Of a stretch of 64,000 nt of DNA, positions 32,066 to 60,464 are shown piece after piece (position 1 is the first letter of the stretch; every line of letters starts with the position of its first letter). Position numbers and translations under genes: made by a program. The DNA is from Candidatus Omnitrophota bacterium (GTDB lineage Bacteria > Omnitrophota > Gorgyraeia > Velamenicoccales > JABMQK01), in assembly GCA_028711115.1 (NCBI GenBank), contig JAQTSV010000001.1, positions 838,032 through 902,031 on the forward strand. The letters are read 5' to 3'. The notes beneath the pieces were generated by a model. The model made no database searches. It worked only from the letters and a program-made list of their open reading frames with translations, and was not told the origin of the DNA.

Positions 32066-32066
32066 A

Positions 32067-32831: not shown

Positions 32832-32832
32832 G

Positions 32833-34562: not shown

Positions 34563-36100
34563 ATCCTCTCCTTTTCTGCCCTAACAAAATATAATGATGA
34601 AAAAATACTAAAAAAATCATATTCTATTGTATTTATTTCTACAGCCTCAAATGATTTTTTCCATAAAGCATTAAGTTTTTCTTTATCAGCAACGTATATT
34701 GTCATTCCATGCAAGGCGGGATCAGGGCAGGCAGAAGTAATTGTATAGTAATTTTCTCCTGACGCCTCAGCCCATTGCAGATAACCATGCCTGGGAGTTA
34801 AATATCCAATGAATGTTTCACCGCTATTGCTTAAGACTCTCGCCGTTTCCTTGACCAATTGCTCTTGATCGGGTATATAGCTACCCATATCGCTGCTTAT
34901 AACAAAATCAAATGTTCTGTTTTCGTAAGGAAATTCGTAGTTTTTCATTTCATTAAACAATATGCTTTTTGTCTTCTTTATCTTTACCGTTTCTTGTTTT
35001 AATCTTTCCAACATTAACTCAGATGTAGAAAGACCGTAAGCAAGATAATTCATTTTCGATATCATTAATAAATTCGCAATATTTTCTGGCATTAATTCCA
35101 ATACTTTGCCATTTTTCTCTCTGGCTTCTTCTTCATTGCCTATATTTCTATAAAATTTATCCAGCTTTCCTCTGTTTCGAGTTGCTAAAAACCTGACAAA
35201 TGGTTCATAAGGATATCTTTGTTCTAAATTAGATTTATCTTTATATAATAACTTATACTTATGGTCCCATAGCTTAGTATTATTTTTTTCAATTTCTTCT
35301 ATTTTTATAATGTTTTTTTTATTGCTATCCATGGTGTTGTTAATTGTTGGTAAGCTTAAACAATTGCTAAAAACACTTTTAGAATTTTTCTTTTGCCCAA
35401 ATAAATAATAATATGACATAAAAAGAGGATAGGTGTCATATTCTTCCATACCGATAGCTACGTCAAAATATTTGCCATAGGTATCTTCTAATTGTCTTTT
35501 TGATTTGAACAAAAAAAGTTCCAGCCCTACCAATCTAGGATTTGGATGATTCTCTGCAAATTTTACAATTGAGCCAGGTTCTCCATGTATATAATTCATA
35601 TACCCATGGCGGGGAGAAAATAAAGAAAAAAAGATTTTACCTCCTGGTTTTAAAACTCTATGACATTCTTTGGAAAAAATTTCCTGATCGATATTGTAAT
35701 ATACGCATTCCAGGCCGGTTATGACATCAAAACTATTATCCTCGACTGGTAATTTATTGCCTTCAAATAATCCCACAGAAAGATTTTTTTCTAATTTGCT
35801 TGCTGTTATAGCTTTCTTCGCCCTCTCGATAGCTTCTCTTGAAACCTCCAGTCCCAATACTTTGAAACCATAACTCTGCATCATAGACATATTTGTAATA
35901 TTGCCGAAACCTAATTCCAATATTTTTCTCTTATGATTTTTGCCGTATTCTTTCGCTAAAATACTTATAAATCTTGTTAAATGCTGATTAGGATATTTTA
36001 TGCCTGGGATATTTGTATTTTTCTGGTAAGTTTTATAGTAATTATCCCAGCCGATTTTGTTATTATTTATTTTTTCTGTTATTGTTTGATTTGTATCCAT
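34559..36100 (-). CDS. Tandem double methyltransferase-fold protein
   Basis: 513 aa. The first half has 'ILELGFGNITN' and 'VLKPGGKIFFSLFSPRHGYMNY'. The second half repeats the fold ('VLSNSGETFIGYLTPRHGYLQW') but has no glycine-rich motif I ('VLELMPENIAN'). Confidence 0.6.
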   Translation of the reverse strand: MDTNQTITEKINNNKIGWDNYYKTYQKNTNIPGIKYPNQHLTRFISILAKEYGKNHKRKILELGFGNITNMSMMQSYGFKVLGLEVSREAIERAKKAITASKLEKNLSVGLFEGNKLPVEDNSFDVITGLECVYYNIDQEIFSKECHRVLKPGGKIFFSLFSPRHGYMNYIHGEPGSIVKFAENHPNPRLVGLELFLFKSKRQLEDTYGKYFDVAIGMEEYDTYPLFMSYYYLFGQKKNSKSVFSNCLSLPTINNTMDSNKKNIIKIEEIEKNNTKLWDHKYKLLYKDKSNLEQRYPYEPFVRFLATRNRGKLDKFYRNIGNEEEAREKNGKVLELMPENIANLLMISKMNYLAYGLSTSELMLERLKQETVKIKKTKSILFNEMKNYEFPYENRTFDFVISSDMGSYIPDQEQLVKETARVLSNSGETFIGYLTPRHGYLQWAEASGENYYTITSACPDPALHGMTIYVADKEKLNALWKKSFEAVEINTIEYDFFSIFSSLYFVRAEKERI

Positions 36101-36109
36101 TTAGTTTTG

Positions 36110-37141
36110 TTATAGATTAATGGAGTTTAATTTTATTGGTTCTCCAAGATTAATATCTCTTTTCGCTTCTTTACCCAATATCTTTTTTAAAAAATACGGA
36201 GAAAGACCAAAGGCCGGCCTTATTGACCTAACATTTGATTCTGTTAAAGTTTCGCCCTTTTTAATATCGTTAACAGCAAATAAAGAGCGCCTAAAAACTT
36301 TATTTCTTCTTTCGTTTGCTGTCAGGCCATAGTGAATTTTGCCCAACGCTTTTTCAGCAACCCGCACGTCCTCTACGAGTAATTTCAATTCTTTGGGTTC
36401 TATCGAGAAAAAACTATCGGGCGTCTTAATTTTTCTTGAAATAGTAAAGTGCTTTTCAATTAAATTTATTCCTAAAGATACAGAAGCCAGCGCTACGCCA
36501 ATCCCTAGGGTATGATCGGAAAGCCCGATTGGACAATTAAACATTTTCTTCATATGAGGAATAGTTTTTAAATTCATCTCACTGGGCTTGGCTGGATAAT
36601 CACTTACGCATTTTAATAACATTATATCCTTTGCCCCCGCATTCTTGGCTGTTTTGATCGCTTGTTTTATTTCTGCTACGCTAGCCATACCGGTTGAGAT
36701 TATAAGCGGTTTTTTTGTCTTGGCAGCATATTCAATTAAAGGTAAATCTACCAATTCAAATGAAGCAATCTTATGGCAAGGGACATTTAATTCTTCGAGA
36801 AAATCAACTGCTGTCTTATCAAAAGCTGTTGCAAAGAATACAATCCCTAAATTATCCGCTACTTTCTTTAGCTGCTTGAACCACTTCCATGGTGTATAAG
36901 CTTTTTTATATAATTGATACAGGGTTTGGCCACCCCATTCAGGATGCTTTATTCTGAAATATTTGCTGTTTACATTTATCGTCATGGTTTCCGGAGTATA
37001 TGCCTGAAATTTTACAGCATCAGCGCCACATTCTTTTGCTTTTTTGATTAAGGCGATGGCCCGCTTAAAACTTTGACTATGATTGGCAGAAATCTCGGCC
37101 ACCACGATGATCTTTTTATCGATACTTTTAAATAAATTCAT
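36110..37141 (-). CDS. pseI: NeuB-family nonulosonate synthase, assigned as pseudaminic acid synthase from context
   Basis: 'IIVVAEISANHSQSFKRAIALIKKAKECGADAVKFQAYTPETMT', 'GLSDHTLG' and a C-terminal SAF-like domain. It sits next to pseH and pseG. Confidence 0.75.
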   Translation of the reverse strand: MNLFKSIDKKIIVVAEISANHSQSFKRAIALIKKAKECGADAVKFQAYTPETMTINVNSKYFRIKHPEWGGQTLYQLYKKAYTPWKWFKQLKKVADNLGIVFFATAFDKTAVDFLEELNVPCHKIASFELVDLPLIEYAAKTKKPLIISTGMASVAEIKQAIKTAKNAGAKDIMLLKCVSDYPAKPSEMNLKTIPHMKKMFNCPIGLSDHTLGIGVALASVSLGINLIEKHFTISRKIKTPDSFFSIEPKELKLLVEDVRVAEKALGKIHYGLTANERRNKVFRRSLFAVNDIKKGETLTESNVRSIRPAFGLSPYFLKKILGKEAKRDINLGEPIKLNSINL

Positions 37142-37587
37142 TTTTTGTAAATTGTCCTGTCCTTAGTCTTTTTAAATAATTTATATCCTGCTTTAAAAAA
37201 AGCCTTTTGAGAAATAATATTATCGTTTTTTATTTTCGCTATTATCGGCTTGTTTGTTTCTTTTTTTCCATGCAATATTTTTTGGGTACCTAACTTTATT
37301 ATTCTTGTTCCTAGCCCTTTTCCTAAAAAAACAGGATTTAAATTAACGCTTACGCTGATATAATCACTGTTGCTATCGAACCTAATTAGTCCGATTTTAT
37401 CTTTACCTGAACAAGCTATGTATATATGTGTGCGAGGGCTGTTTATTCTTGAATAAAACCATTTTTTGTGCGTATCCCAGGAAATTATTTTCATATTGAA
37501 AAAATTCTTTCTTATCTGCGGGGCATTACGCCATAGCCACATATCTCTACAGTCTTCCTCTCTTGCTCTACGTAGCTTCAATTTCAT
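37138..37587 (-). CDS. pseH: GNAT N-acetyltransferase of the PseH type
   Basis: 149 aa: 'LRRAREEDCRDMWLWRNAPQIRKNFFNMKIISWDTHKKWF' and 'GKGLGTRII'. It overlaps pseI by 4 nt. Confidence 0.65.
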   Translation of the reverse strand: MKLKLRRAREEDCRDMWLWRNAPQIRKNFFNMKIISWDTHKKWFYSRINSPRTHIYIACSGKDKIGLIRFDSNSDYISVSVNLNPVFLGKGLGTRIIKLGTQKILHGKKETNKPIIAKIKNDNIISQKAFFKAGYKLFKKTKDRTIYKK

Positions 37588-37594
37588 TATTTTA

Positions 37595-38275
37595 TCACTT
37601 TAAAATCCTAATTGTTTCAAATGCCTCAGCGTAATTTAGCCCGACATGAACACCCCAGCGTTTTGCAATAATTTTAACTGCTTCTTCGGATCTGGGGTGC
37701 GGAAAAGTTCTCAATTCGGTTTTATAACATTTCATTGCTTCAATTTTCCTATCAATTGAATCGGCAATGTTTACAAATATATTTGGGCTGAACCTACAAG
37801 GATAATTCCACTCTGTGGAAGAAGGAGTTTCAAAAGAATATATTTCTTTTACGGTTTCGCCCTTTATAGGCCTACAGGCGGTCAAAGCAGCATTATAAGT
37901 TATCCTGTGATCAATATTTAAATCTCCTCTATGATGAGTATATAATATATCCGGTTTAATTTTTTTCTTTGTTTCTTCAATTAACTTGATTATTTCCAGT
38001 AATGCTATTGTGTCAAATTTATTGTCAGGTAAATCAAAAGCAAAAACTTTCTCTGCCCCTATAATTTTATTTGCTTTATATAATTGATTTCTTAATTCTT
38101 TGACTTCTTTATTCTTGTTTTCTTTGTCTTTCGTTTGGTATCTGGAAGTTATGCCTTCCCCCAAAATCAATACAAAAGCACTGCAACCGCCACGGACCAT
38201 TTTAGCTACTGTTCCTCCGCATCCTAAGATTTCATCATCTGGATGCGCCGCTACAACTAAAATCTTATTTTTCAT
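37595..38275 (-). CDS. PIG-L/LmbE-family N-deacetylase
   Basis: 'ILVVAAHPDDEILGCGGT' and 'HHRGDLNIDH'. Confidence 0.8.
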   Translation of the reverse strand: MKNKILVVAAHPDDEILGCGGTVAKMVRGGCSAFVLILGEGITSRYQTKDKENKNKEVKELRNQLYKANKIIGAEKVFAFDLPDNKFDTIALLEIIKLIEETKKKIKPDILYTHHRGDLNIDHRITYNAALTACRPIKGETVKEIYSFETPSSTEWNYPCRFSPNIFVNIADSIDRKIEAMKCYKTELRTFPHPRSEEAVKIIAKRWGVHVGLNYAEAFETIRILK

Positions 38276-38970
38276 TTTTTCACCCTTATCTCTGCCTTGG
38301 CTAAAATATTATTTTTTCCGAATTTAGCATTAAAAAACTCAATTTTTAGTTTTGATGTTTCTATGAAAGCCGGTGGATATCCTTCTGCATCAAGCATTCT
38401 TATATAATCATATACTTTTTTTTCGTTAGATAAATTTGCAATGTCACCTTGTTTTGGAGTACGTCTTTTAAACTTTATAACCTTTCCGTATTGAGGAGCA
38501 GGATCCGGCTCATTTTTTATAATATACGGGATCATATTTTTAAAGATTATGTGCGAAGCTCTTTTAAAAATCTGCTCAGCAGATCCATTTAATTCCAATT
38601 TTCTTTTTAAATATATCAGACCGGAATCTATTGTTTTTTCAACTCTTAAAGCTGTGATTTTTGTTTTGGATATTCCTCTGTCGATTAAATTTTGAAGTGG
38701 GCTGCCACCCCTGCCAAATGGTAAGTCCGTCATATGAAAAACAATACATTTATAATTACTATAAATTCTTTCCGGGATTATCCATGACCAATGAGGTAAA
38801 AAGATATACCGGGGATTAAATTTCTTTATTTTTTGATAAGTTAATCCGTTTTTATTGGTTATAAGTCTAATTTTTAAATCTGGATTTCTGGAAATAAATC
38901 TTTTTGCATTATCTATGTTCCAGGATTTAATTGTAGCAATGATATATTTCTTATTGGTGGAGATTGTCAT
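38272..38970 (-). CDS. Formyltransferase-family protein (Fmt/PurN-like N-terminal fold)
   Basis: 'VFHMTDLPFGRGGSPLQN' aligns to the H-x-S-L-L-P-x-x-R-G core. 'IDSGLIY' lies downstream. Confidence 0.55.
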   Translation of the reverse strand: MTISTNKKYIIATIKSWNIDNAKRFISRNPDLKIRLITNKNGLTYQKIKKFNPRYIFLPHWSWIIPERIYSNYKCIVFHMTDLPFGRGGSPLQNLIDRGISKTKITALRVEKTIDSGLIYLKRKLELNGSAEQIFKRASHIIFKNMIPYIIKNEPDPAPQYGKVIKFKRRTPKQGDIANLSNEKKVYDYIRMLDAEGYPPAFIETSKLKIEFFNAKFGKNNILAKAEIRVKK

Positions 38971-38971
38971 A

Positions 38972-39919
38972 TTATATTTTAATAAGTTTATTGATTATTC
39001 TTCCGACACCTTTTCCGTCTACAAGATTTCTGCCTATTCTGCTAAACCTGGCTCTTTTTTTATATGGCATAAATTTATTGATACTGTTTTCGATTCTGTT
39101 TAATAAACCTTTATTCTTATACCATCCGACATATTCGATAAATCCTCTTTTTTGCCATTCTTCTAAATTTAATCTTTGATTTTCAGCAAAACATATTCCG
39201 ATTGTAGGTATCCCTATCCTTGCTAGTTCATACGTAGTCTGCCCACCGCCTGAAATACAAATGTCAGCTTTTAGCATTAAGTTAAGTATTTCTTTAGCAT
39301 TAAATCTATTCTTATTCGGTTCAACTATATGAAAATTAAAATTGAATTTATTTTTCAGATAATTAATTATTTTGTGCATAAGATCTGAATGGTTGATTCC
39401 TCCGGACATAATCAAAATATCTTTCACGCGTTTCTTTATTATTTTATTTACCGATGTTTCCCGAAATTCCTTGCGTAGTATTATGTAATCTTTGCCTAAC
39501 AAATAATCCGAACTATCTCTCTGCGAATAATTAAGTTTATCGCCATATATAGAAGGATTAACTACTATCCCATGCGGATATTTTATTCTTCTATAATCAT
39601 CTATCATAACCAATGATTTTTCGTTGATAATTCCTGAGATCCTATTGTATAAATCTTTATTCGCTAAATAAGAGTCGATTATTACGATGTCTGCCTCAGT
39701 CAACATTTTAAATAACTTATTTTGTTCTTTTAACCAGTTAAATATCTTATAATTCTTGCCTTTCAATAAATCTACTATGTTTTTATCCCCTTTTATTATG
39801 AGTGTTGGTTCGATATTCCTTTCTTTGAATGCTTCATAAAGCGCAACACATCTTGTGATATGACCAAAACCGATATTTTTACCGCCTTCTGTTAAAACGC
39901 ATATTTTTATGGTATCCAT
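38972..39919 (-). CDS. pseG: UDP-2,4-diacetamido-2,4,6-trideoxy-beta-L-altropyranose hydrolase (PseG-type)
   Basis: 'GGKNIGFGHITRCVALYEAF' at the N-terminus and 'ADICISGGGQTTYELARIGIP' at the C-terminus (GT-B, MurG-like). Confidence 0.7.
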   Translation of the reverse strand: MDTIKICVLTEGGKNIGFGHITRCVALYEAFKERNIEPTLIIKGDKNIVDLLKGKNYKIFNWLKEQNKLFKMLTEADIVIIDSYLANKDLYNRISGIINEKSLVMIDDYRRIKYPHGIVVNPSIYGDKLNYSQRDSSDYLLGKDYIILRKEFRETSVNKIIKKRVKDILIMSGGINHSDLMHKIINYLKNKFNFNFHIVEPNKNRFNAKEILNLMLKADICISGGGQTTYELARIGIPTIGICFAENQRLNLEEWQKRGFIEYVGWYKNKGLLNRIENSINKFMPYKKRARFSRIGRNLVDGKGVGRIINKLIKI

Positions 39920-39933
39920 TCTTTAAATATCTT

Positions 39934-41232
39934 CTAATCGATGAAATTAATTAAACCCTTTTTTTCAAATTTTCTAAGGTAGTCGAGTAGTTTAAAATAA
40001 TCGATGTCGTGTTTTAAGGCAATATCTGAAATTGTCTGTTTTCCGTCAAAATATCTGATTACGCAATCCATCAGATAATTCCATTTTCTTTGTTCTTTCG
40101 ATATGGTTAATCTTATGCTCGGGTCTATGGTATGAATGTATAAATCGTATTTAGGATTACTTAACGCCATTAGCCCTTTAAAGTTTCTTGTCATCCTTGT
40201 ATCTGTCTCTAAAATATCTATTATACCTAAAACGGTGTTCACGGACTCTTTCAGCTTGTCTTCATTTATAATCTTTTCATTATCAAGGTTTGAATGATAT
40301 TGTGAATATGGTGCGCGAGATAATGAAATACAGGGAATTTCATAGCCTGGCGACTCCCAGACGGTTTCATCATTTCCTACGATCTTCCTGAATTTATCTG
40401 AATAATAATCCGGAAAGTTATGTTTAAAATATATGTGTGCAGCCTTATCGATTAGGCTATCGCCATTAAAAGATTGCTGCAAGGCAAATCTATTATTATT
40501 TCCCAGCATTTCAAGAAACATGCCATATTTAAACTTTTTTACCTCTCTATCCGGAGTATTTGCTAAATAGAAAATGGTGCCTAGATGTTCTGGTGCAATA
40601 ATTAATTTATAACTATATTTTCTTTTCTTTCTTTTCTTCAGCGTTTTCATAACTTCTATGGCCACAACTACTCCCGAGATATCGTCATTAGCCTGAGCAG
40701 CATGACAATCGTGGGCGTTTAAAAATATAATATCTTCTTTTTCTCCTTTAAGTAAATAATCCAGAACCTTCATAGTGCCTTTTTTATATTCTGTCTTGAG
40801 ATCTATATCGTATTCTCCGGATTTTAATTTTTTAAATAATGTATATGGGGCACTGAATCCCCAATCAGAACGCCAGGGTTTATAATAATAATCGCAGTGG
40901 TAGCCTATCGCATCAGGAAGGTCTTTTCTAAACGATATGTGTTGTTTTAGTTCGCTTAGCGATACCTTTCCTTTAAATGATTTCGCATATCCCATAACAC
41001 CAAGCGGGTGTTTTAGCCCATTATAAATAAGTTTGTTGTTTTTTCTTATTTCTGCTTTTTTTACCTCCCATGAGTAAGGCACTGTCCATCCATTATGCTC
41101 TGAAAGTGATGGATATTTATGCACAAAAAAAGGAAGTTCTTCCAAAAGTATTTGAACTGTCTTATCAGCATCGGCTGAAACTGGTGCAAGGCGTAACGGA
41201 TAAATTCTTTTTAATAACTCAAACATTTCCAT
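39934..41232 (-). CDS. DUF4910/DUF2172-type aminopeptidase-like protein with a C-terminal winged-helix-like tail
   Basis: 'NAHDCHAAQANDDISGVVV' and 'IIAPEHLGTIFYL' match my memory of this family's CHPsmAN..lSG and PeTIGs..yL blocks. Not verified by search. Confidence 0.5.
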   Translation of the reverse strand: MEMFELLKRIYPLRLAPVSADADKTVQILLEELPFFVHKYPSLSEHNGWTVPYSWEVKKAEIRKNNKLIYNGLKHPLGVMGYAKSFKGKVSLSELKQHISFRKDLPDAIGYHCDYYYKPWRSDWGFSAPYTLFKKLKSGEYDIDLKTEYKKGTMKVLDYLLKGEKEDIIFLNAHDCHAAQANDDISGVVVAIEVMKTLKKRKKRKYSYKLIIAPEHLGTIFYLANTPDREVKKFKYGMFLEMLGNNNRFALQQSFNGDSLIDKAAHIYFKHNFPDYYSDKFRKIVGNDETVWESPGYEIPCISLSRAPYSQYHSNLDNEKIINEDKLKESVNTVLGIIDILETDTRMTRNFKGLMALSNPKYDLYIHTIDPSIRLTISKEQRKWNYLMDCVIRYFDGKQTISDIALKHDIDYFKLLDYLRKFEKKGLINFID

Positions 41233-41247
41233 TTTTTGTTATTATAA

Positions 41248-41808
41248 TTATTTAAAAAAACCTTGGCGCTTTTTTTTATCATATCTTGCTCTTGTTAAGC
41301 CGAGGATTGCTACATCGCAATATTTACCATTCGAATACACATATTCTCTTATGATACCTTCGTTATCTAAACCCGCCTTTTCATTTGATTTGATCGAAGG
41401 TAAATTATCAACAACACCATGGTCAATAATCCGGTTAAGATTTAGTTTCTCAAATGCATATTCGATCATTAATCTCATTGCTTCAGTGCCGTAACCTTTA
41501 CCCCACGCTTCTTTGCACAGCATTCTTCCGAATCCTGTTCTTCTATGAATCCAATTAATAGGACCGATTTTTGCGTTACCTATATGTTTATCGGTCTTTT
41601 TTTCAATTACAGCAAAGAATACATAATTGGGATCTTTTGAGATATTTTTTACATATTCTTCCAAGTTTTCTCTGGTTTTAGGAAAAGGGTCATCCATAAA
41701 TTTAGTCACATCACAATCGTTGATCCATTGGATGTATTTTCCATTTAAATCGCTCATATCAAAAGGTCGTAAATAAATTTTCTTCCCCACTAAAAAAGGT
41801 CTATCCAT
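41248..41808 (-). CDS. GNAT N-acyltransferase (RimJ/RimL-like)
   Basis: 'IGNAKIGPINWIHRRTGFGRMLCKEAWGKGYGTEAMRLMIEYAF'. The track start (41871) is a GTG extension overlapping the upstream gene. I use ATG at 41808 (MDRPFLVGKKIYLRPF), 4 nt after the upstream stop. Confidence 0.7.
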   Translation of the reverse strand: MDRPFLVGKKIYLRPFDMSDLNGKYIQWINDCDVTKFMDDPFPKTRENLEEYVKNISKDPNYVFFAVIEKKTDKHIGNAKIGPINWIHRRTGFGRMLCKEAWGKGYGTEAMRLMIEYAFEKLNLNRIIDHGVVDNLPSIKSNEKAGLDNEGIIREYVYSNGKYCDVAILGLTRARYDKKKRQGFFK

Positions 41809-41812
41809 TTTT

Positions 41813-42361
41813 TTACTCCTTTGTCTTTGAAAATAAAGCCAGGCATATTTTATTGACATATACACCATCACAAAAATATTGATTTTTTAATATGGCTTCT
41901 TGCACAAAATTAGCCTTTTGAAAAGCCAATAAAGAACCTATGTTGTTTGCATAACAGCCAGCAGTTAATTTGCGTAGATTCAACTTATAAAATGCGTAAT
42001 TTGAAATCAATTTAATAGCTTCTGTTGCGTATCCTTTTCCCCAGCAGGCCTTTTCTCCTATAAAAAGGCTAATTTCTCCAACGCGGTGTATCCAGTTTAT
42101 AGGGCCTAATTTAATATTACCGATATGCTGCTTTTCATTTTTTAAACATATAGCCAGAAATATTTGCTCTGGATTATTATGAATTTTTTCTACGTATTGT
42201 TTAATATCTTCAATGGTATGAGGAAAATAGCGAGTCTCCATATACTTATTGATATCCTGGTCATTCATCCATCGACAATAATTTTCATTAATATCTTCGG
42301 GAACAATGTTTCTTAAGAATATTCTTTTGCCTTCGATGAAATATGTCTCTTTATTGCCCAT
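41813..42361 (-). CDS. GNAT N-acyltransferase (RimJ/RimL-like), tandem paralogue
   Basis: 'IGNIKLGPINWIHRVGEISLFIGEKACWGKGYATEAIKLISNYAF'. Confidence 0.75.
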   Translation of the reverse strand: MGNKETYFIEGKRIFLRNIVPEDINENYCRWMNDQDINKYMETRYFPHTIEDIKQYVEKIHNNPEQIFLAICLKNEKQHIGNIKLGPINWIHRVGEISLFIGEKACWGKGYATEAIKLISNYAFYKLNLRKLTAGCYANNIGSLLAFQKANFVQEAILKNQYFCDGVYVNKICLALFSKTKE

Positions 42362-43373
42362 TCTTTAATCCTTTTGAGCTATAGGTTGCTTTGAAAGTAA
42401 TAGCTTTTTCGAGATCTTGTGTTAATGAATAAAATCTATCACCCAATTTGATATTTTTCATTAAATCGTTATTATTTTCATCAATAACCTTCTCAACCCT
42501 TAGCGTCCCTTCTTTAGCTAAAACTCTAATAAACTTTTTGTCCTTATGGACGACTATGCCGGCAGAAAAAGGATGGATGTCTTTATCTCTCTTTTCCAAG
42601 AAAACCTTCTTCAAAAATACCCGCTTATTATTAATTCTTGTAGAAGCACCACGGTAAGGCTCATCGAATGCACAGATAAACTTTGTTATTTCCAGTGCAT
42701 TCCAATTCCAGTTGATCCAGCCATTGATTAAAGTATGTAAAAACGGATAGTAGGTACTTTCTTTTTCGTTAAGCATATTTTTCTTAAATTCCTTTCCATA
42801 TTTAACCTGGTTTAAAAATTCGACTATAAAATCTCTCTCAATAGGAACTGCTTGATTAAAGTAATCTATAGGAATGCAGCAATGTCTATCAAAAGTAAAT
42901 ATTTTTCTTTTGATAATTGGTCCCTTATGAAATTTATCTTCACCGCCTTCTATTATCTGCAAATTGCAACACCCTTTTTTATTATTAAATAATATTTGCC
43001 ATGAATAGTGGGCGCCTCCTCGATATCTAGGAAGATCAATCCCCATAAAATCAAGTAGGGGTTTATGAAATTTTCTGACAAATTTCTTTTCGAATACCCA
43101 AGAGGCCCCAAAAGCAATTCCCAGTGCAGACTTATCAATATATCCGTCAATTAACTTGGATTTATTAATATTATCTTCACTGAAAAATTTTATATTATTT
43201 TCGTCTAAAAACTCTCTAAGTAATTTGCCATTTCCGATATCCTCACTTAAATGACGTTTGCTACTGAATACAATTACCTCGTAGATATCAATCAATGAAA
43301 TTCTTTTGGCTACTTCTGCCAATAATATACTGCCTCCGAATAGGATAATTCTTTTTATTTTCCCAAATTTCAT
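42351..43373 (-). CDS. Formyltransferase-like protein with a divergent catalytic motif
   Basis: 340 aa. '...LDFMGIDLPRYRGGAHYSWQIL' keeps the LP.YRG core, but the usual Asn and His positions read D and M. 'EDKFHKGPII' follows. Confidence 0.45.
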   Translation of the reverse strand: MKFGKIKRIILFGGSILLAEVAKRISLIDIYEVIVFSSKRHLSEDIGNGKLLREFLDENNIKFFSEDNINKSKLIDGYIDKSALGIAFGASWVFEKKFVRKFHKPLLDFMGIDLPRYRGGAHYSWQILFNNKKGCCNLQIIEGGEDKFHKGPIIKRKIFTFDRHCCIPIDYFNQAVPIERDFIVEFLNQVKYGKEFKKNMLNEKESTYYPFLHTLINGWINWNWNALEITKFICAFDEPYRGASTRINNKRVFLKKVFLEKRDKDIHPFSAGIVVHKDKKFIRVLAKEGTLRVEKVIDENNNDLMKNIKLGDRFYSLTQDLEKAITFKATYSSKGLKNGQ

Positions 43374-43383
43374 AGCTAAGTTG

Positions 43384-44472
43384 CTATTCCTTTCTATTGG
43401 TTGGTATTACCGCATGTCTCTTTGTCAGTTTATTAAAATCTTCTTCAAGAATCCCCACGTCATTAATAAATTTATCCATTGCCTTTGGCCTTTTACCATC
43501 AAGTGTTTTAACTAAACGCAGCGCTTCTTTCCTGGTTATCAATCCATCGCGCACATCTTTGCTTGCTTGAAATGTTGTCCTTCCTAAATTGCGTTTAATA
43601 AATTTCTGCCAATCCCTCACTGACTCATACGGACAGTCTACCTTATCCCAGTCAACATAAGTTCCTTCAACTTTATTATGTTTCCATCCCAGTTCTTTGG
43701 TAATAATTTCCACATGTTTTCTTTGATCCCAGGGTTCGTAATTTCCTAGATAAATTGCTTTTAATTTAAAGTTCCCTTCGGGCCAAACCATAGGCAACAA
43801 GTCTGATATTGCATATTCCTTAGGTAAGGCCATTTCCGGTTTGATTCCTGCCTGAAAAACTTTTTGATAATGTTCCTCATCTTGTTCCTCAATGTCTTCA
43901 AGCTTATAAGCACCTTCCGTCTGGTATTCAGCTGTGGGTTCTCCCCATATCTGCAGAGGAATATCCCATTGTTTTGAAATGCGGGCAGGGAACGTACCTA
44001 CTCCGTTGTGACAATGCCAACAAAAATCACCCATTATCCCAGTTGTTTTTTTACAGAGTGCGTTCCGTAAACCGTTACCGATACTAAACCTTAAATGGTC
44101 ACAATCCAAGATCTTGGGAATTTCCATAAGATTCCATTCTGCTTCAGGAGATAAAGTGAAGCTGTGATCGAAAGTAACAACCAGAGGCTTCATTTTATAT
44201 TTCCTTACCATGGCCCAAAGAGTATAAACCGTATCCTTGCCTCCGCTATAACCTACAATGCAATTATATTTATTATTTCTTTTTTTAGCATACCTACGGA
44301 ATTTGTGCAAAATTTTATCCAGAATTTTCTGGCGTTCTTTCCAATTGATTTTATTCTTTTTCTTCATAAATTCACTGCACAGACTACAGACACCATCTTC
44401 ATCAAATGATATACCTGACCATGTTTCCGGCATAACACATTTTGTGCACCTTTTTAATGTATTCTTATTCAT
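43384..44472 (-). CDS. N-acetyl sugar amidotransferase (WbuX/PseA/WbpG family, PP-loop ATPase)
   Basis: N-terminal Zn ribbon 'CTKCVMP...GVCSLC', PP-loop 'VGYSGGKDTVY' and 'FCWHCH'. Confidence 0.75.
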   Translation of the reverse strand: MNKNTLKRCTKCVMPETWSGISFDEDGVCSLCSEFMKKKNKINWKERQKILDKILHKFRRYAKKRNNKYNCIVGYSGGKDTVYTLWAMVRKYKMKPLVVTFDHSFTLSPEAEWNLMEIPKILDCDHLRFSIGNGLRNALCKKTTGIMGDFCWHCHNGVGTFPARISKQWDIPLQIWGEPTAEYQTEGAYKLEDIEEQDEEHYQKVFQAGIKPEMALPKEYAISDLLPMVWPEGNFKLKAIYLGNYEPWDQRKHVEIITKELGWKHNKVEGTYVDWDKVDCPYESVRDWQKFIKRNLGRTTFQASKDVRDGLITRKEALRLVKTLDGKRPKAMDKFINDVGILEEDFNKLTKRHAVIPTNRKE

Positions 44473-44497
44473 TTTTACTTCTTGCTCCCATTTTTAA

Positions 44498-45808
44498 TTA
44501 CGCTATCCTTCTAAAACCTGAGTGACAAACAGGAATCTTTGAATATTTTTTGATTTTATTTTTTCTTATAACATTGGCAATAAAACCAAAGGCGTCATCA
44601 ACTGAGTTTAAATAATCTCTAACATTATTTATTTTATGTCCATAAGAAGCGTAAAATGACGTTGTAGCCAAAAATCCCTTTTCAAGCATTAATCTGGTAA
44701 ATAAAGTTTTTAAAATCAAGGGGTCTTTGTAGTTGAAAGTAAAATTAGTTAAAGGATAAATACCCGATATCGTTATGTTTAAATTATGTTTTTCTGCAAG
44801 TTTTTTCCAATTAATTTGTATTTCTTTGCCTATTCTGCTGAGATAATCCGGCACATCATTCTTTTTGAGTTTATTTATTGTAGCTAACGCTGCAGTGGGT
44901 CCGATTCTTTCTGTCCAGTATGTGCTGCTGATAAAAGTATCTTGTGCAGCTTGCATTATTTCTTTTCTTCCTATTATTGCAGCCATGGGATAGCCGTTAC
45001 TAATCGCCTTTGCAAATACGCACATATCCGGATAAACTTGGAATTTCAGATGTGCTCCGCCTATATGTAAACGCCAGCCAGATGTAATTTCGTCAAAAAT
45101 AAGAACAATATTCAATTTTTTGGTTACTTTTCTTATAGTTTCTAAAAAGCCTTTTTTAGGATAGTAACTTCTAATGGGCTCCATAACTACGGCTGCTATT
45201 TTATTTTTATTTGCTTTGATTAATTTCAGAAATCCTTCCGTGTCATTATAATTAAAAGGAATTGATGTATTGCGTAATTTTCTGGGCACACCTTTTGGTT
45301 GCAAGCCGGGCAGAAGGTGCCCGTCTAAAGATTTATCATTTGCTAAGTTTGAAGCTAAATACCAATCATGCCAACCATGATAGCCACAAAATAATATTAA
45401 ATCTTTATCAGTTTTGGCTCTGGCTATTCTTACGGCAATTGCCATGGCTTCACCTCCGCTGCGTGCATATCTCGCCATATCTGCCCACGGATGAATTTTA
45501 CATAATTCCTTGGCAAGTTCTACTTCTTCGGGGCAGTTTAAGGTAGCCATAGAGCCTTTATCTATAGCTTTTTTTATTTTATTATCAACGTCTTCATCGG
45601 CATAGCCCAATATGCAACTGCCAACACCCATGCTGCTCATATCGATATATTTGTTACCATCCAAATCCCATATCTCGCAACCTTTGGCTTTCTCATAATA
45701 AGCCGGCCATAAATTTGGTAGAAACATTTCTGGCCTCTTGGATAAAAGCTGGGTTCCGCCAGGTATTATCTTCTTAGCCTCTTTATAAAGATTTTGTGAT
45801 TTACCCAT
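44498..45808 (-). CDS. Class III PLP aminotransferase (glutamate-1-semialdehyde-aminomutase-like)
   Basis: 'RYARSGGEAMAIAVRIARAKT', 'FCGYHGWHDWY' and 'LIFDEITSGWR'. Confidence 0.75.
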   Translation of the reverse strand: MGKSQNLYKEAKKIIPGGTQLLSKRPEMFLPNLWPAYYEKAKGCEIWDLDGNKYIDMSSMGVGSCILGYADEDVDNKIKKAIDKGSMATLNCPEEVELAKELCKIHPWADMARYARSGGEAMAIAVRIARAKTDKDLILFCGYHGWHDWYLASNLANDKSLDGHLLPGLQPKGVPRKLRNTSIPFNYNDTEGFLKLIKANKNKIAAVVMEPIRSYYPKKGFLETIRKVTKKLNIVLIFDEITSGWRLHIGGAHLKFQVYPDMCVFAKAISNGYPMAAIIGRKEIMQAAQDTFISSTYWTERIGPTAALATINKLKKNDVPDYLSRIGKEIQINWKKLAEKHNLNITISGIYPLTNFTFNYKDPLILKTLFTRLMLEKGFLATTSFYASYGHKINNVRDYLNSVDDAFGFIANVIRKNKIKKYSKIPVCHSGFRRIA

Positions 45809-46588
45809 TTATTTATTCCTTTGTTTAGTACCTAGTATCTTATCCTCTTTTAAAGATTTCAAATAGCCTTCATTTCTTATAATGTTTTTATTCAATTCTT
45901 CTAATTCCGGATTAAGCTTTAAGAATTTCAGAATATCTCCCATATCAAAATTCGGGTTAATTGGATACAGCGATTCCAGTATGGTTTTTATCAATTTGAA
46001 ATCTGCTTCTGTATCTAAAGTCCATCTTTTTTTAGAAAGATTTTCTTTATTCTTAAAATTGATTAATTTAAATTTCTCTGGGTGCTTTTTTAAATATGGC
46101 GTGACGTGTTCTCTCTCTGATAAAAGACTTGAATTTTTCCAGGCATATTCCAAAGCATCAAAGCTAAACACTTCCACATCTTCTCCGTCGGGAAATGTTT
46201 CTTCTAAAGTATTGGAGCAATAATCTGCTTTGTTTTTAAAATAACAATGAACAACATCACTAATTATCCCTGGGTCTAGTAAAGGACAATCAGCTGTAAT
46301 TCTTGCTATATGCTGTATTTTAAATAATTTTGCTGCCTGATAATATCTGTCTAAAACATCGTCTTCAGATCCACGGTATAATTTTATATTTAGCCTACTG
46401 ACTAAATTAGCTATTGGTAAATCGCTTTCTTTTGTTGTAGTGGCCACGACTATATCTTCTATAGCTTTGGATTTCTTTACTCTTTCTACGGCATATTCCA
46501 ATATAGTTTTATCCATAACTTTTAATAACACCTTACCTGGTAGTCTGATAGCGCCAAATCTTGCTTGAATAATAGCGTGTGCTTTCAT
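45809..46588 (-). CDS. SpsF-type cytidylyltransferase (CMP-sugar-acid synthetase family)
   Basis: 'AIIQARFGAIRLPGKVLL', 'VVATT', 'RGSEDDVLDRY' and 'ARITADCPLLDP'. I chose the start at ATG 46588, which forms an ATGA overlap with the upstream stop. The track start is 46594. Confidence 0.7.
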   Translation of the reverse strand: MKAHAIIQARFGAIRLPGKVLLKVMDKTILEYAVERVKKSKAIEDIVVATTTKESDLPIANLVSRLNIKLYRGSEDDVLDRYYQAAKLFKIQHIARITADCPLLDPGIISDVVHCYFKNKADYCSNTLEETFPDGEDVEVFSFDALEYAWKNSSLLSEREHVTPYLKKHPEKFKLINFKNKENLSKKRWTLDTEADFKLIKTILESLYPINPNFDMGDILKFLKLNPELEELNKNIIRNEGYLKSLKEDKILGTKQRNK

Positions 46589-47484
46589 TTCCATTTATTA
46601 GGAATAATCACTTCTTCGTAGTCTAATTTTAGGGATTCCAATAAATCATAGATATTCTTTGTTTTATCTAGGTATTCAAAAGAATCTATGTTTTGTCTTA
46701 GTTGTTCTACAGAATCTACACCGATAATTACCTTATCTAAGAATGGATTTAATAAAACAAAACACAGACATAAAGCAAACAGAGGTATGTTATTATCTAT
46801 TGAAATACGACGTAATTTATTTATATTGTCTTTGGCTAATTGAAAATCCTTATTTATGATATCGGTTTCCAAGAAAAACAAACCCTGCAGGAAAACCGAT
46901 CTTGAATGGATTTCTGCTTTCATATTTTTTAGAACCGAGAAATATGTCTTAAACCTTTGATCAAAAATATTGTAGGGAATTTGGACAATGTCAAATTTAA
47001 TATTATTATTCAATAAATATTCCAATTCACTTACGTTATATAAAGATACGCCTATTTTTTCTACCAGGCCATCTTGTTTTAGAGATTCCAATATGCCCCA
47101 TATTTCTTTATTTTCTATTAAATTGTCAAATTTATGGATTAAATATCCGTATAGGGCTGGCTGTTTTAGATTATTGAGTGTTTTATGAAAATATTTTTCA
47201 ACATCTGAAATGCCTTTATCGCTTAGGTTAGGCAATTTAGAAATGATTTTAAAATAATTGCCGCTCTGGGCAATAAAATCGCCTATTAACTGCTCGCTGT
47301 TTCCATATGAGTAAGCTGTGTCTAAAGCATTTATTCCTTTTCCAAAAGCATATTCTAAAATATTGAAGATATCTTTTGGAGAAGGCTTTGGAGAACGATT
47401 TGCTATTCCGTATTTCATTCCAAATTGTGCTGTTCCTAAGACAATTCTTTTTATTGGCATAAAATTCTCTTTATATTTGAACAA
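46585..47484 (-). CDS. Aldo/keto reductase
   Basis: 'IVLGTAQFGMKYG', 'INALDTAYSYGNSE' and 'GVSLYN'. An ATG at 47460 (MPIKRIVLG) may be the real start. Confidence 0.7.
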   Translation of the reverse strand: MFKYKENFMPIKRIVLGTAQFGMKYGIANRSPKPSPKDIFNILEYAFGKGINALDTAYSYGNSEQLIGDFIAQSGNYFKIISKLPNLSDKGISDVEKYFHKTLNNLKQPALYGYLIHKFDNLIENKEIWGILESLKQDGLVEKIGVSLYNVSELEYLLNNNIKFDIVQIPYNIFDQRFKTYFSVLKNMKAEIHSRSVFLQGLFFLETDIINKDFQLAKDNINKLRRISIDNNIPLFALCLCFVLLNPFLDKVIIGVDSVEQLRQNIDSFEYLDKTKNIYDLLESLKLDYEEVIIPNKWK

Positions 47485-48590
47485 ATATACTCGACTTCTC
47501 TATTTGTTAAACCGGGAAACAAAGGTATGGTTATAGCTTTAGAATAGTATCTTTCTGCTTTCGGGTAATCACCTTTCTTATATCCAAGATTCTTCCTGTA
47601 ATATGGTTGTAAGTGAACCGGGATATAGTGCACCTGGATTCCTATATGATATTTTTTTAACTTATCAAATACAAATCTCCTCACAGAGGCATTTTTTAAT
47701 CTAATGCAATAAATATGCCAAGATGATTTTACGTAGTTTCTTTCTTTTGGCAAAATAATAGTACTGATTTGCGATAAATTACGGTCGTATAATTTTACAA
47801 TTTTCCTTTTTTTGTCTATAAATTTATCGATTTTACCTAGCTGGCTTATTCCTAAAGCACATTGAAAGTCGGTTATGCGATAATTGAAACCCAAATGCTG
47901 CATTTCATAATACCAACTACCAGTTTTCTTAATTTTTTTCCTGTCTTTAGCGATGCCGTGATTCCTGAGCAATAAAAGCCTTTTATATAAATCTTTTCTA
48001 TTCGTAAGAACGGCTCCTCCCTCGCCAGTTGTTATAGATTTTACGGGATGAAAACTAAATACAGCCATGTCAGAATATTTGCAGGAACCAATTTTTGAAT
48101 CTCTGTACTCTGCCCCTAATGCATGTGCGGCGTCTTCTATAACAATTAAATTGTGTTTCTTCGCAATACTCTGGATTCTTTTTAAATCGCAAGGATGACC
48201 AGCAAAGTGAACAGGAATTATTGCCTTAGAATTTTTAGTAATCTTATCAATTATTTCTTCTGGATCTATATTTTGCGTATCCTCTTGAATATCTGTAAAT
48301 ACAGGTTTTCCACCGCAATATAAAATACAATTCGCAGAAGCCACAAAAGTCATAGGCGAAGTAATAACTTCATCGCCTTTTTTTATTCCCGCAGCAAGGC
48401 AGGCAAGATGTAATCCGGCTGTTCCATTAGCTACTGCTACAGCGTATTTAGCTCCGGTGTATTTAGAAAGCGCGCATTCAAATTCATTAATTCTTGGCCC
48501 TTGGGTAATCCAATCGGAACGAAGCGTCTTAACAACCTGCCTGATATCGCTTTCATCAATACATTGGCGACTGTAGGGTATTAATTTCAT
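47451..48590 (-). CDS. pseC: UDP-4-amino-4,6-dideoxy-N-acetyl-beta-L-altrosamine transaminase (DegT/PseC type)
   Basis: 'IPYSRQCIDESDIRQVVKTLRSDWITQGPRINEFE' and the PLP-lysine region 'FSFHPVKSITTGEGG'. It follows pseB. Confidence 0.8.
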   Translation of the reverse strand: MKLIPYSRQCIDESDIRQVVKTLRSDWITQGPRINEFECALSKYTGAKYAVAVANGTAGLHLACLAAGIKKGDEVITSPMTFVASANCILYCGGKPVFTDIQEDTQNIDPEEIIDKITKNSKAIIPVHFAGHPCDLKRIQSIAKKHNLIVIEDAAHALGAEYRDSKIGSCKYSDMAVFSFHPVKSITTGEGGAVLTNRKDLYKRLLLLRNHGIAKDRKKIKKTGSWYYEMQHLGFNYRITDFQCALGISQLGKIDKFIDKKRKIVKLYDRNLSQISTIILPKERNYVKSSWHIYCIRLKNASVRRFVFDKLKKYHIGIQVHYIPVHLQPYYRKNLGYKKGDYPKAERYYSKAITIPLFPGLTNREVEYICSNIKRILCQ

Positions 48591-49564
48591 ATGCTCTCGA
48601 TCATCCTTTCAAGCTCTTTTTTTGTAAGCCACAGATTATTATTGTCGCTTGTATATTTAAAACCTTCTGCCAAATGTTTTCCCTTCTTAAAATTATCCAC
48701 TCTCCACCAAGGATGTTCCGGCTCTACAATAAAATAATCAGCGAATTTTAATGTATGCCTGGATTCATCTTTGGTTATCAAACATTCATGAATTTTCTCG
48801 CCCGGGCGGATTCCTATATATCTAACTTTACATTTAGGGGCGATTGTTTTTGCCAAATCTACAATCTTCATACTGGGAATCCTGGGAACGAAAATCTCTC
48901 CTCCATGCATCATTCCAATAGATTTTATTACAAATTCCACGCCCTGTTCTAAAGTCATCCAAAAACGTGTCATTTCTTTATCAGTGATGGTAATAGTCCC
49001 TATTTTTTTCTGTTCTTTTAATAAAGGCACAATACTTCCTCTGGACGCTACGACGTTACCGTATCTTGTACAAGAAAGTTGTGTTTGCCTTTGTTTTCCT
49101 ACATAAGAATTTGCGGCGACGAATAATTTTTCCATGCACATTTTAGTAGCGCCATACAGATTCACCGGGTTTACTGCCTTATCGCTGCTTATAGCCATCA
49201 CTTTTTCAATATTATGATCTATCGCCGCATCAATTACATTTTGCGCGCCCATAATATTAGTCTTTATAGCTTCGAAAGGATTATATTCACAAAGGGGGAC
49301 TTGTTTTAAGGCTGCAGCGTGGACAACTATATGTGCGCCGTCCATTGCACGTTTTAATCTGTCTTTATCGCGCACATCTCCGATGAAAAATCTCAAACCT
49401 TTAACATTATTAAATTTTTTCTCCATTTCCCACTGTTTTAATTCATCGCGGCTGAAAATTCTGATGACTTTCGGCTTATGTTTTTTAATCATAATTTCGG
49501 TAAATTTCTGGCCAAAGGAACCTGTACCGCCAGTCAATAAAATAATCTTCTTGGACCAATCCAT
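48587..49564 (-). CDS. pseB: UDP-N-acetylglucosamine 4,6-dehydratase (inverting), PseB/FlaA1 type
   Basis: 'KIILLTGGTGSFGQKF' and 'YGATKMCMEKLF' (YxxxK). The track start (49615) is a TTG extension. ATG at 49564 has 'AGAGAGGA' 6-7 nt upstream. Confidence 0.8.
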   Translation of the reverse strand: MDWSKKIILLTGGTGSFGQKFTEIMIKKHKPKVIRIFSRDELKQWEMEKKFNNVKGLRFFIGDVRDKDRLKRAMDGAHIVVHAAALKQVPLCEYNPFEAIKTNIMGAQNVIDAAIDHNIEKVMAISSDKAVNPVNLYGATKMCMEKLFVAANSYVGKQRQTQLSCTRYGNVVASRGSIVPLLKEQKKIGTITITDKEMTRFWMTLEQGVEFVIKSIGMMHGGEIFVPRIPSMKIVDLAKTIAPKCKVRYIGIRPGEKIHECLITKDESRHTLKFADYFIVEPEHPWWRVDNFKKGKHLAEGFKYTSDNNNLWLTKKELERMIESI

Positions 49565-60352: not shown

Positions 60353-60464
60353 AGAAGGTTTAAATAAATTTAATACGGCTCGAATTTGAGCTTCCAAATA
60401 CCATTTACTTTCTCAAGAACATCCTTGTTGGCAAATTTATCGAGTACATCATCAAATTCTTTTC
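60352..60464 (-). repeat. Right copy of the 113-nt direct repeat: hisH start codon, 17-nt spacer and the 3' end of the intact amidotransferase gene
   Basis: See 58792-58904. The offset between copies is exactly 1560 nt. Confidence 0.85.

Follow-up and report, generated by a model that had tools for sequence, protein, structure and literature searches.

An intriguing question is raised by a 64,000-nucleotide stretch of the genome of a Candidatus Omnitrophota bacterium (contig JAQTSV010000001.1; this whole stretch is called the window hereafter): why should genes of the pathway to pseudaminic acid (Pse), a sugar of the nonulosonic acid type, be held apart by a series of genes from quite different families? 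Acids of this type influence the charge of the cell surface, recognition by phages and the interaction with hosts, and uncultured Omnitrophota are seen here to carry genes for a heavily tailored Pse-type sugar within a very large polysaccharide locus. In a preliminary description, the region between positions 36,110 and 49,564 was regarded as a Pse core split by nine genes for the remodelling of N-acyl groups. We favour, with a probability of roughly 0.6, another reading: a modular and extended Pse-type nonulosonate operon, placed inside a Wzx/Wzy polysaccharide locus, in which three recurrent cassettes tailor the product. These are a trio of an aldo/keto reductase (AKR), an SpsF-type cytidylyltransferase and a class-III pyridoxal phosphate (PLP) enzyme (AT3), a cassette around a DUF4910 metalloprotein, and a pair formed by an Fmt-like protein (FmtS) and a PIG-L de-N-acetylase.

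Open reading frames (ORFs) were called in the window and their families assigned with NCBIfam profiles, at the equivalog cut-offs, and with Pfam profiles. The window contains 59 ORFs of at least 120 aa, arranged in one uninterrupted minus-strand gene train with about 33% GC, and the family matches of the 15 genes of the region (Table 1) have E-values from 1e-9 to 1e-156, far past chance. All the families named in the preliminary description were found in their places, including FmtS and PIG-L between pseG and pseH. Its Pse core also held: PseB, PseC and PseI, three of the six defining enzymes of the pathway, pass the equivalog cut-offs of their models, PseG is borderline, just under its own, and a 149-aa GNAT is weakly PseH-like. 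A legionaminic or neuraminic core was rejected, since the LegB (64 bits against a cut-off of 475), LegC-family (281 against 420) and NeuB (313 against 400) models, unlike those of PseB, PseC and PseI, do not reach their cut-offs. PseB, PseC, PseG and PseI are each encoded just once in the window. The pseB ORF reaches a TTG at 49615, and the ATG at 49564 agrees with the model start.

The PseG-like gene adjoins PseH and PseI in related loci too, and its product gives full-length matches to proteins of loci L008 and L160 in which PseG and PseH are fused. With the PseH model TIGR03585, the three GNATs of the region score 42.9, 49.7 and 38.4 bits, all below the cut-off of 93.1, and the best match of the 149-aa GNAT in the Protein Data Bank (PDB) is MJ1062. 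Because PseG carries a homolog of this protein at its C-terminus in L008 and L160, the 149-aa GNAT is likely the functional equivalent of PseH despite its low score. Both PseH and PseF may plausibly be replaced in their roles by proteins that are divergent or not orthologous.

As for the separation of the core, pseC and pseG do lie apart, with eight genes between them and not nine (the list given earlier has eight as well); no ninth gene was found, as all further ORFs of 40 aa or more in this interval overlap one of the eight. Most adjacent genes of the region touch or overlap one another, as would suit co-transcription. Promoter- and terminator-like sites between 35.5 and 51.5 kb are no commoner than in shuffled sequence, so that a division of the region by internal promoters or terminators was rejected, and there are no Rfam matches to RNA elements across the whole window. 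The surroundings are those of a Wzx/Wzy-type surface-polysaccharide locus, with an initiating Bac_transf enzyme, a WecG/TagA-type transferase, GT2 and GT4 transferases, a Wzx flippase and a Wzy-like protein, together with deoxysugar enzymes and a set for the formation of 3'-phosphoadenosine-5'-phosphosulfate (PAPS) with two sulfotransferases.

Table 1. Features of the window, in order of decreasing coordinate; bit scores refer to the profile or PDB entry named.
Feature	Coordinates	Strand	Matches and remarks
WbuX paralog	62971-63960	-	TIGR03573; lacks the N-terminal 46 model positions
B12-binding radical SAM enzyme	61557-62945
WbuX paralog, canonical	60370-61542	-	TIGR03573
HisH	59735-60397	-	TIGR01855 213 bits
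WbuZ/HisF-like protein	58936-59730	-	TIGR03572 231 bits, under equivalog cut-off 300
Sulfotransferase	57810-58778
726-aa fusion protein	55608-57788		pyruvate-kinase barrel, PUA_2 and ATP-sulfurylase domains
APS kinase	55076-55645
715-aa ORF	52928-55075		no family match in Pfam or NCBIfam
657-aa candidate nonulosonate transferase	50958-52931		weak BFO_1060, TIGR04396 and TIGR04326 ('surface carbohydrate' transferase) matches
NeuA/PseF-like cytidylyltransferase	50227-50961	-	TIGR03584 60.7 bits (cut-off 205.7); PF02348; PDB NeuA 51 bits
HAD phosphatase	49590-50234	-	PF13419
pseB, UDP-GlcNAc 4,6-dehydratase (inverting)	48587-49564	-	TIGR03589 489 bits (cut-off 408)
pseC, UDP-4-amino-4,6-dideoxy-AltNAc aminotransferase	47451-48590	-	TIGR03588 520 bits (cut-off 424)
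Aldo/keto reductase (AKR)	46585-47484	-	PF00248 125 bits; annotated start about 47460
SpsF-type cytidylyltransferase	45809-46594	-	PF02348 110 bits; PDB 6OEW 158 bits
Class-III, glutamate-1-semialdehyde-aminomutase-like PLP enzyme (AT3)	44498-45808	-	PF00202 157 bits
WbuX/PseA-family N-acetyl sugar amidotransferase, cassette copy	43384-44472	-	TIGR03573 269 bits (cut-off 203)
FmtL, 340-aa Fmt-fold protein	42351-43373	-	PF02911 (Formyl_trans_C) only; TIGR00460 E = 2e-10
GNAT1, SpeG-like N-acyltransferase	41813-42361	-	PF13302 88 bits; PDB SpeG about 59 bits
GNAT2, second N-acyltransferase	41248-41808	-	PF13302 83 bits; gene call in L001
DUF4910/DUF2172 M28-like metalloprotein, CA_C2195 family	39934-41232	-	PF16254 191 bits; PF09940 65 bits
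pseG-like UDP-sugar hydrolase	38972-39919	-	TIGR03590 136.6 bits (cut-off 153.6)
FmtS, 232-aa 1ZGH-type Fmt-like protein	38272-38970	-	PF21553 (Formyl_trans_C_2) 72 bits, weak Formyl_trans_N; PDB 1ZGH 264 bits
PIG-L/LmbE-family de-N-acetylase	37595-38275	-	PF02585 88 bits
pseH-like 149-aa GNAT	37138-37587	-	TIGR03585 42.9 bits (cut-off 93.1)
pseI, pseudaminic acid synthase	36110-37141	-	TIGR03586 468 bits (cut-off 340)
Methyltransferase, HpcH/HpaI aldolase, methyltransferase, KdsB-like cytidylyltransferase, D-2-hydroxyacid dehydrogenase, cyclase	30475-36100		KdsB-like protein 305 bits, above subfamily cut-off
578-aa candidate nonulosonate transferase	26839-28575		as the 657-aa protein
Sulfotransferase-like gene	25624-26823
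B12-binding radical SAM enzymes	20155-21540, 8571-11048, 3861-5363

The recurrence of these genes was followed in two samples of related loci, whose ORFs were labelled with the window proteins by tblastn and phmmer: 80 metagenome loci anchored on SpsF, and 79 loci from a species-representative genome collection anchored on DUF4910. The counts rest on loci of at least 9 kb, namely 34 SpsF-anchored loci for the backbone and 63 DUF4910-anchored loci for the cassettes. Among the former, PseI occurs in 27, PseB in 24 and PseC in 22, and AKR, SpsF and AT3 form a recurrent trio (AT3 in 31/34, AKR in 24/34); the exact order PseB-PseC-AKR-SpsF-AT3, usually followed by PseG-(PseH)-PseI, was seen in 13 of the 34. 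FmtL, the longer Fmt-fold protein of the window, is found in 40 of the 63 DUF4910-anchored loci, and these 40 also carry WbuX (30), HisH (27), a GNAT (31) and PseI (22). The common backbone is PseB-PseC-AKR-SpsF-AT3-PseG-(PseH)-PseI, into which two cassettes are inserted, WbuX-(HisH-HisF)-Fmt-like-GNAT-DUF4910 as the first and FmtS with PIG-L as the second. The full order of the window (PseB, PseC, AKR, SpsF, AT3, WbuX, Fmt-like/GNAT, DUF4910, PseG, PseH, PseI) recurs in three loci from metagenome-assembled genomes (MAGs) of Nitrospirota (L003, L008 and L012). The split core is therefore an ordinary layout, one widespread backbone with two widespread inserts that is not peculiar to this genome, and the window represents the fullest cassette combination of this survey.

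Several of these genes are also joined in single proteins. An uninterrupted ORF with SpsF as the N-terminal and AT3 as the C-terminal part occurs in six loci, AKR is fused to SpsF in L127 (an uninterrupted ORF) and P0203, the PseG-PseH fusions of L008 and L160 are likewise single uninterrupted ORFs, and GNAT-DUF4910 and GNAT-FmtS fusions appear in precomputed domain strings. The SpsF-AT3, AKR-SpsF, GNAT-DUF4910 and PseG-PseH fusions link their genes functionally. One alternative is that AKR-SpsF-AT3 constitutes a separate pathway, leading to some other CMP- or CDP-activated (cytidine mono- or diphosphate) building block and interleaved here by locus mosaicism. Such an origin would account for L082 and L087, where the trio is accompanied by GNATs, AMP-ligase and radical SAM genes with no PseB, PseC or PseI within 10 kb, and two further cytidylyltransferases are encoded in the window. 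We consider it improbable, however: PseI accompanies SpsF in most of the anchored loci, the trio is fixed between PseC and PseG in at least 13 loci, which carry no other cytidylyltransferase, and a PseG-PseH-like fusion is kept beside the trio even in L082 and L087. The earlier view that the intervening genes go with the Pse core and not with an unrelated sugar pathway is in this respect borne out by their co-occurrence and collinearity with the core in many phyla and by the fusion of several of them, either with one another or with genes of the core.

The hosts of the loci comprise Nitrospirota, Omnitrophota, Margulisiibacteriota, Elusimicrobiota, Planctomycetota, Thermodesulfobacteriota, Gammaproteobacteria, several lineages of the candidate phyla radiation (CPR) and Micrarchaeota. 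Across these host groups the DUF4910 proteins are 50-69% identical, which points to horizontal spread. The DUF4910 cassette, often together with PseB/PseC/PseI, was also observed in reduced-genome MAGs of Micrarchaeota, Saccharibacteria, Paceibacterota, Komeilibacteria and Doudnabacteria (L016, L025, L030, L032, L033, L036, L041 and L048).

How, then, would the sugar be activated? No gene of the window reaches the PseF equivalog cut-off, the best candidate being the NeuA/PseF-like gene (Table 1), and the SpsF-type gene gives no match to the PseF model TIGR03584 at E-values up to 1e-5. The SpsF-type enzyme, previously placed among the remodelling genes, is probably the core CMP-activation step, a substitute of PseF. 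This assignment draws on four observations: in Bacillus subtilis, spsF mutants still synthesise legionaminic acid and lose its transfer (PMC7439481); in the Pse cluster of Vibrio sp. B9-25K2, an SpsF-AKR fusion was proposed by the authors as the replacement of NeuA (PMC7371886); SpsF is the sole CTP_transf_3 gene in most related Pse loci, a second NeuA/PseF-like cytidylyltransferase being present in 0/34 SpsF-anchored loci and a KdsB-like gene in 1/34; and the KdsB-like 'GSTRLPGK' loop is conserved in the window protein.

The other two members of the trio had also been listed as N-acyl genes. AKR and AT3 are more likely to act on the sugar skeleton, through redox chemistry and amination or through epimerisation, than on N-acyl groups. 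AT3 retains the PLP lysine, and its nearest solved non-aminomutase relatives include aminoglycoside C-6' aminotransferases and a 6'-epimerase; for AKR, no PDB match was obtained at E-values up to 1e-10. Their fusions to SpsF make it most likely that both enzymes use the nonulosonate as substrate in or near the activation step, and this is the least certain step of the pathway. A search of the open-access literature for AKRs or class-III aminotransferases in nonulosonate clusters gave the Vibrio paper (PMC7371886) alone. A natural 8-amino nonulosonate exists in Tenacibaculum maritimum (PMC3210612), and a tie between AKR/AT3 and this sugar was considered and rejected, as no corresponding genes are named in the genomics paper on the O-antigen. 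In five loci (L084, L091, L112, L127 and L131) PseI and AT3 are present with no PseC within reach, and in L145 PseC occupies the usual position of AT3 after SpsF; PseC and AT3 may sometimes be interchangeable.

Legionella pneumophila is known for legionaminic, not pseudaminic, acid. The same gene set is found in its serogroups Sg6/12 (PMC3694923), and the SpsF-AKR cluster of Vibrio B9-25K2 is associated with a di-N-acetyl nonulosonate whose fragments in tandem mass spectrometry (MS/MS) are unlike those of Pse5Ac7Ac (PMC7371886). For these two reasons the stereochemistry of the product is uncertain, and it is possible, if somewhat doubtful, that AKR and AT3 re-set or add a stereocentre, the product being another 5,7-diamino nonulosonate stereoisomer or a triamino derivative. 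The presence of SpsF in the UDP-based (uridine diphosphate) legionaminic pathway of B. subtilis (PMC7439481), the aminoglycoside-type relatives of AT3 and the 8-amino sugar of T. maritimum would all agree with such a product. On the other side, PseB, PseC and PseI exceed Pse-specific equivalog cut-offs that their Leg and Neu counterparts do not reach, and no genetic link is known from AKR or AT3 to any such structure.

We turn now to the inserts of the favoured modular operon. WbuX-family enzymes are of the acetamidino-forming type, converting N-acetyl into acetamidino groups. Their catalytic mechanism is described as still poorly characterised (PMC10607449). Three members of the family are encoded in the window (269, 350 and 294 bits with TIGR03573, cut-off 203), and the PP-loop motif SGGKD is present. 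The cassette copy, which matches the N-acetyl sugar amidotransferase of L. pneumophila (PDB 8WEX, 88 bits), shares only 26% identity with the canonical paralog, and 39 of the 47 WbuX-family ORFs of related loci match the cassette copy best; it belongs to a distinct and divergent subfamily travelling with DUF4910. In the relatives, a 1.4-kb stretch between WbuX and the FmtL/GNAT genes holds a HisH-HisF pair. The sole glutaminase/cyclase pair of the window, HisH with WbuZ/HisF, lies 14 kb upstream of the cassette WbuX and is probably common to the three paralogs.

A transfer of formyl groups by FmtL is doubtful. In 40 homologs the N-x-H motif of Fmt is replaced by a strictly conserved D-F-M and the catalytic Asp is lost; without the Asn/His/Asp triad, FmtL was rejected as a canonical formyltransferase, and it is probably not a formyltransferase. 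Tandem FmtL paralogs occur in some loci (L013, L033), and the first copy of L013 keeps the canonical N-x-H. GNAT1, which matches PseH of Campylobacter jejuni (4XPK) with E = 1e-4, is by synteny a constant member of the DUF4910 cassette; GNAT2, whose ORF extends to a GTG at 41871, has a homolog with 72% identity in the Omnitrophota locus L009. The DUF4910 protein matches PDB 3K9T with 155 bits and keeps His/Asp/His at the positions of the published Zn ligands (H189/D195/H324); a C-terminal HTH_47 domain was not detected in it by Pfam. The authors of the 3K9T structure favoured a role in the modification of sugars, by transacylation or deacylation, and not as a peptidase, and their analysis of DUF4910 neighbourhoods, published in 2014, already associated the family with nonulosonate and sugar loci (PMC4000134).

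In the second insert, 117 homologs of FmtS display the motif (V/I)FHxTDLPxGRG, in which Val (as in the window protein) or Ile stands for the catalytic Asn while His and Asp are kept, as is also the case in 1ZGH. In profile alignment FmtS is a close homolog of 1ZGH, an uncharacterised protein, and it may be regarded as a candidate N-formyl or N-acyl transferase. It is adjacent to PIG-L here and in L024, L084, L098, L099 and L165, and the two stand beside PseI or PseG in L024, L084, L098, L099 and L164, and also in the Planctomycetota flagellar locus L165. In Ca. Kuenenia, free-amine and N-formyl CMP-nonulosonates were measured, and a deacetylase and a formyltransferase are present in the cluster (bioRxiv 10.64898/2026.04.20.719630). 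The FmtS/PIG-L pair appears to parallel that pair; a direct link between them was looked for and not found, the homologs obtained being from Planctomycetota MAGs of which none is named Kuenenia, and the parallel remains an analogy. A related set was observed in a flagellin-linked cluster of Planctomycetota MAGs (L165-L167, 7108-13798), a flagellar glycosylation locus that comprises PseB-like, DegT, methyltransferase, FmtS, PIG-L, 218-aa Fmt-like, NeuB and CTP_transf_3 genes; PseG and PseH are not detectable there, and the Fmt/PIG-L set sits exactly at the usual PseH/PseG site. L084 carries the same triple of FmtS, PIG-L and a second Fmt-like gene.

N-acyl tailoring, whether by acetamidino formation, de-N-acetylation, re-acylation or formylation, has precedents and appears plausible, and it is the likely task of the WbuX, GNAT, DUF4910 and PIG-L/FmtS parts; to this extent the preliminary description stands. 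Its wider claim was that all the interposed genes remodel N-acyl groups, so that several substituents at N5/N7 and more than one Pse derivative would result. The gene content is generous enough for this, with three WbuX paralogs, three GNATs, two Fmt-fold proteins, one PIG-L and one M28-like protein in the window; Ca. Kuenenia offers a precedent for deacetylation and formylation at the level of the CMP-sugar, and the two weak BFO_1060-type transferase candidates of 657 and 578 aa could each take a different donor. We nevertheless find it rather unlikely in this full form, as SpsF is best read as core activation, AKR and AT3 do not belong to acyl-handling families and are fused to SpsF, and FmtL has no catalytic triad; PseB, PseC, PseG and PseI are present once each, and the sequence fixes no number of products.

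In the modular operon that we favour, PseB and PseC, whose profiles are above cut-off, would convert UDP-GlcNAc into a UDP-4-amino-6-deoxy sugar, the amine of which would be acylated by the 149-aa PseH-like GNAT. PseG would then remove UDP, PseI, also above its cut-off, would condense the PseG product with phosphoenolpyruvate, and the SpsF-type cytidylyltransferase would make the CMP-sugar in place of PseF. Around this step, the AKR, AT3 and SpsF cassette may act on the nonulosonate or CMP-nonulosonate, through oxidation/reduction and transamination or through epimerisation. With help from the upstream HisH/HisF genes, WbuX could turn an N-acetyl into an acetamidino group. The removal and replacement of an acyl group on an amine could fall to the Zn-binding DUF4910 protein together with GNAT1, GNAT2 and the non-canonical FmtL, and PIG-L would strip an N-acetyl group so that FmtS may add a formyl or another small acyl.

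Several points weigh against this scheme. PseG, PseH and PseF all fall under their equivalog cut-offs, and the NeuA/PseF-like cytidylyltransferase just upstream of pseB is an alternative candidate for CMP activation. The cassette WbuX lacks a HisH/HisF pair of its own, unlike its relatives, and the absence of the triad from FmtL and of Asn from FmtS makes their acyl-transfer activity uncertain. To these are added the AKR-SpsF-AT3 trios of L082 and L087, which stand apart from PseB, PseC and PseI, as well as the Vibrio and L. pneumophila products.

The comparison with known systems places the locus between several of them. With the CMP-Pse pathway of C. jejuni and Helicobacter pylori (PseB, C, H, G, I, F, plus PseA with Cj1314c/Cj1315c) the window shares PseB, PseC and PseI at the equivalog level, PseG-like and PseH-like genes, and a WbuX/PseA-family amidotransferase with a HisH/HisF pair in the locus. 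The pse genes of C. jejuni are likewise dispersed among other glycosylation genes. Unlike those pathways, which serve flagellin glycosylation, the window has a Wzx/Wzy polysaccharide context and no PseF equivalog, with an SpsF-type enzyme instead and AKR, AT3, DUF4910, Fmt-fold proteins and PIG-L in addition. Both backbone and gene order are shared with Vibrio sp. B9-25K2 (PMC7371886), with the O-antigen locus of L. pneumophila Sg6/Sg12 (PMC3694923) and with many metagenome loci; in the published L. pneumophila table, the oxidoreductase and the cytidylyltransferase are separated by an amidotransferase ('LPS biosynthesis protein'), HisH, HisF and an acetyltransferase (PMC3694923). Beyond the Vibrio and L. 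pneumophila clusters, the window adds FmtL-GNAT-GNAT-DUF4910 and FmtS-PIG-L, and its cassette WbuX has no adjacent HisH/HisF.

The neighbourhoods of CA_C2195/DUF4910 (3K9T; PMC4000134) contain the same family, also among nonulosonate and sugar-modification genes, but in Clostridium acetobutylicum CA_C2195 lies, unlike the window gene, in an island for the glycosylation of flagellin that includes Maf and an ATP-grasp ligase, and the 2014 paper (PMC4000134) did not resolve the tight WbuX-HisH-HisF-Fmt-like-GNAT-DUF4910 unit. In Ca. Kuenenia stuttgartiensis (bioRxiv 10.64898/2026.04.20.719630), the deacetylase and the formyltransferase lie between core nonulosonate genes as in the window, whereas that core is of the Leg type and the present one of the Pse type. 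Of the WbuX/WbuY/WbuZ system (AglXYZ, LpNASAT 8WEX), three TIGR03573 members and a single HisH/WbuZ pair are encoded in the window, but the cassette copy is divergent. Finally, the sps pathway of B. subtilis (SpsM, C, D, G, E, F; PMC7439481) combines SpsF-type activation with a route based on UDP-sugars and with the PseG-like SpsG, although its product is legionaminic acid and it has no AKR, AT3, DUF4910 or WbuX.

The AKR-SpsF-AT3 backbone had thus been noticed before, in Vibrio and L. pneumophila, but not characterised; the present analysis resolves the cassettes, recognises a WbuX subfamily that is specific to one of them, shows that the active site of neither Fmt-fold protein is canonical, and adds the set of fusions. 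More speculatively, and with clearly less confidence than in the modular operon itself, the trio and the WbuX-(HisH/HisF)-Fmt-like-GNAT-DUF4910 cassette might represent an undescribed branch of nonulosonic acid chemistry, spread by horizontal transfer among Nitrospirota, Omnitrophota, Planctomycetota, Elusimicrobiota, CPR and DPANN archaea. For instance, an amino-bearing carbon might be added or epimerised at the level of the CMP-sugar, after which an M28-like enzyme that is no peptidase and an Fmt-fold enzyme that does not transfer formyl would attach amidine or N-acyl groups. For the window alone, the outcome is mainly a refinement of annotation. The fusions, in turn, give concrete partners to DUF4910 (3K9T, with no known function) and to the 1ZGH 'Fmt' family, and the cassettes travel with Pse genes over many phyla, including the small-genome CPR and DPANN lineages.

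Other genes of the polysaccharide locus deserve a brief mention. Upstream of pseB, a protein of 726 aa presents an unusual fusion of a pyruvate-kinase barrel with PUA_2 and ATP-sulfurylase domains, preceded by a sulfotransferase and followed by an APS (adenosine 5'-phosphosulfate) kinase, and a second sulfotransferase-like gene lies further away (Table 1); the sulfurylase, APS kinase and sulfotransferases suggest a sulfated glycan. The block that begins with a methyltransferase and an HpcH/HpaI aldolase and includes the KdsB-like cytidylyltransferase may be a second, PEP-independent (phosphoenolpyruvate-independent) route to a CMP-activated 2-keto-3-deoxy acid, and a pair of HpcH and KdsB-like genes also adjoins DUF4910 in L007. 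The locus further encodes about ten SAM (S-adenosylmethionine) methyltransferases and four B12-binding radical SAM enzymes, one of which has 825 aa and a SPASM domain.

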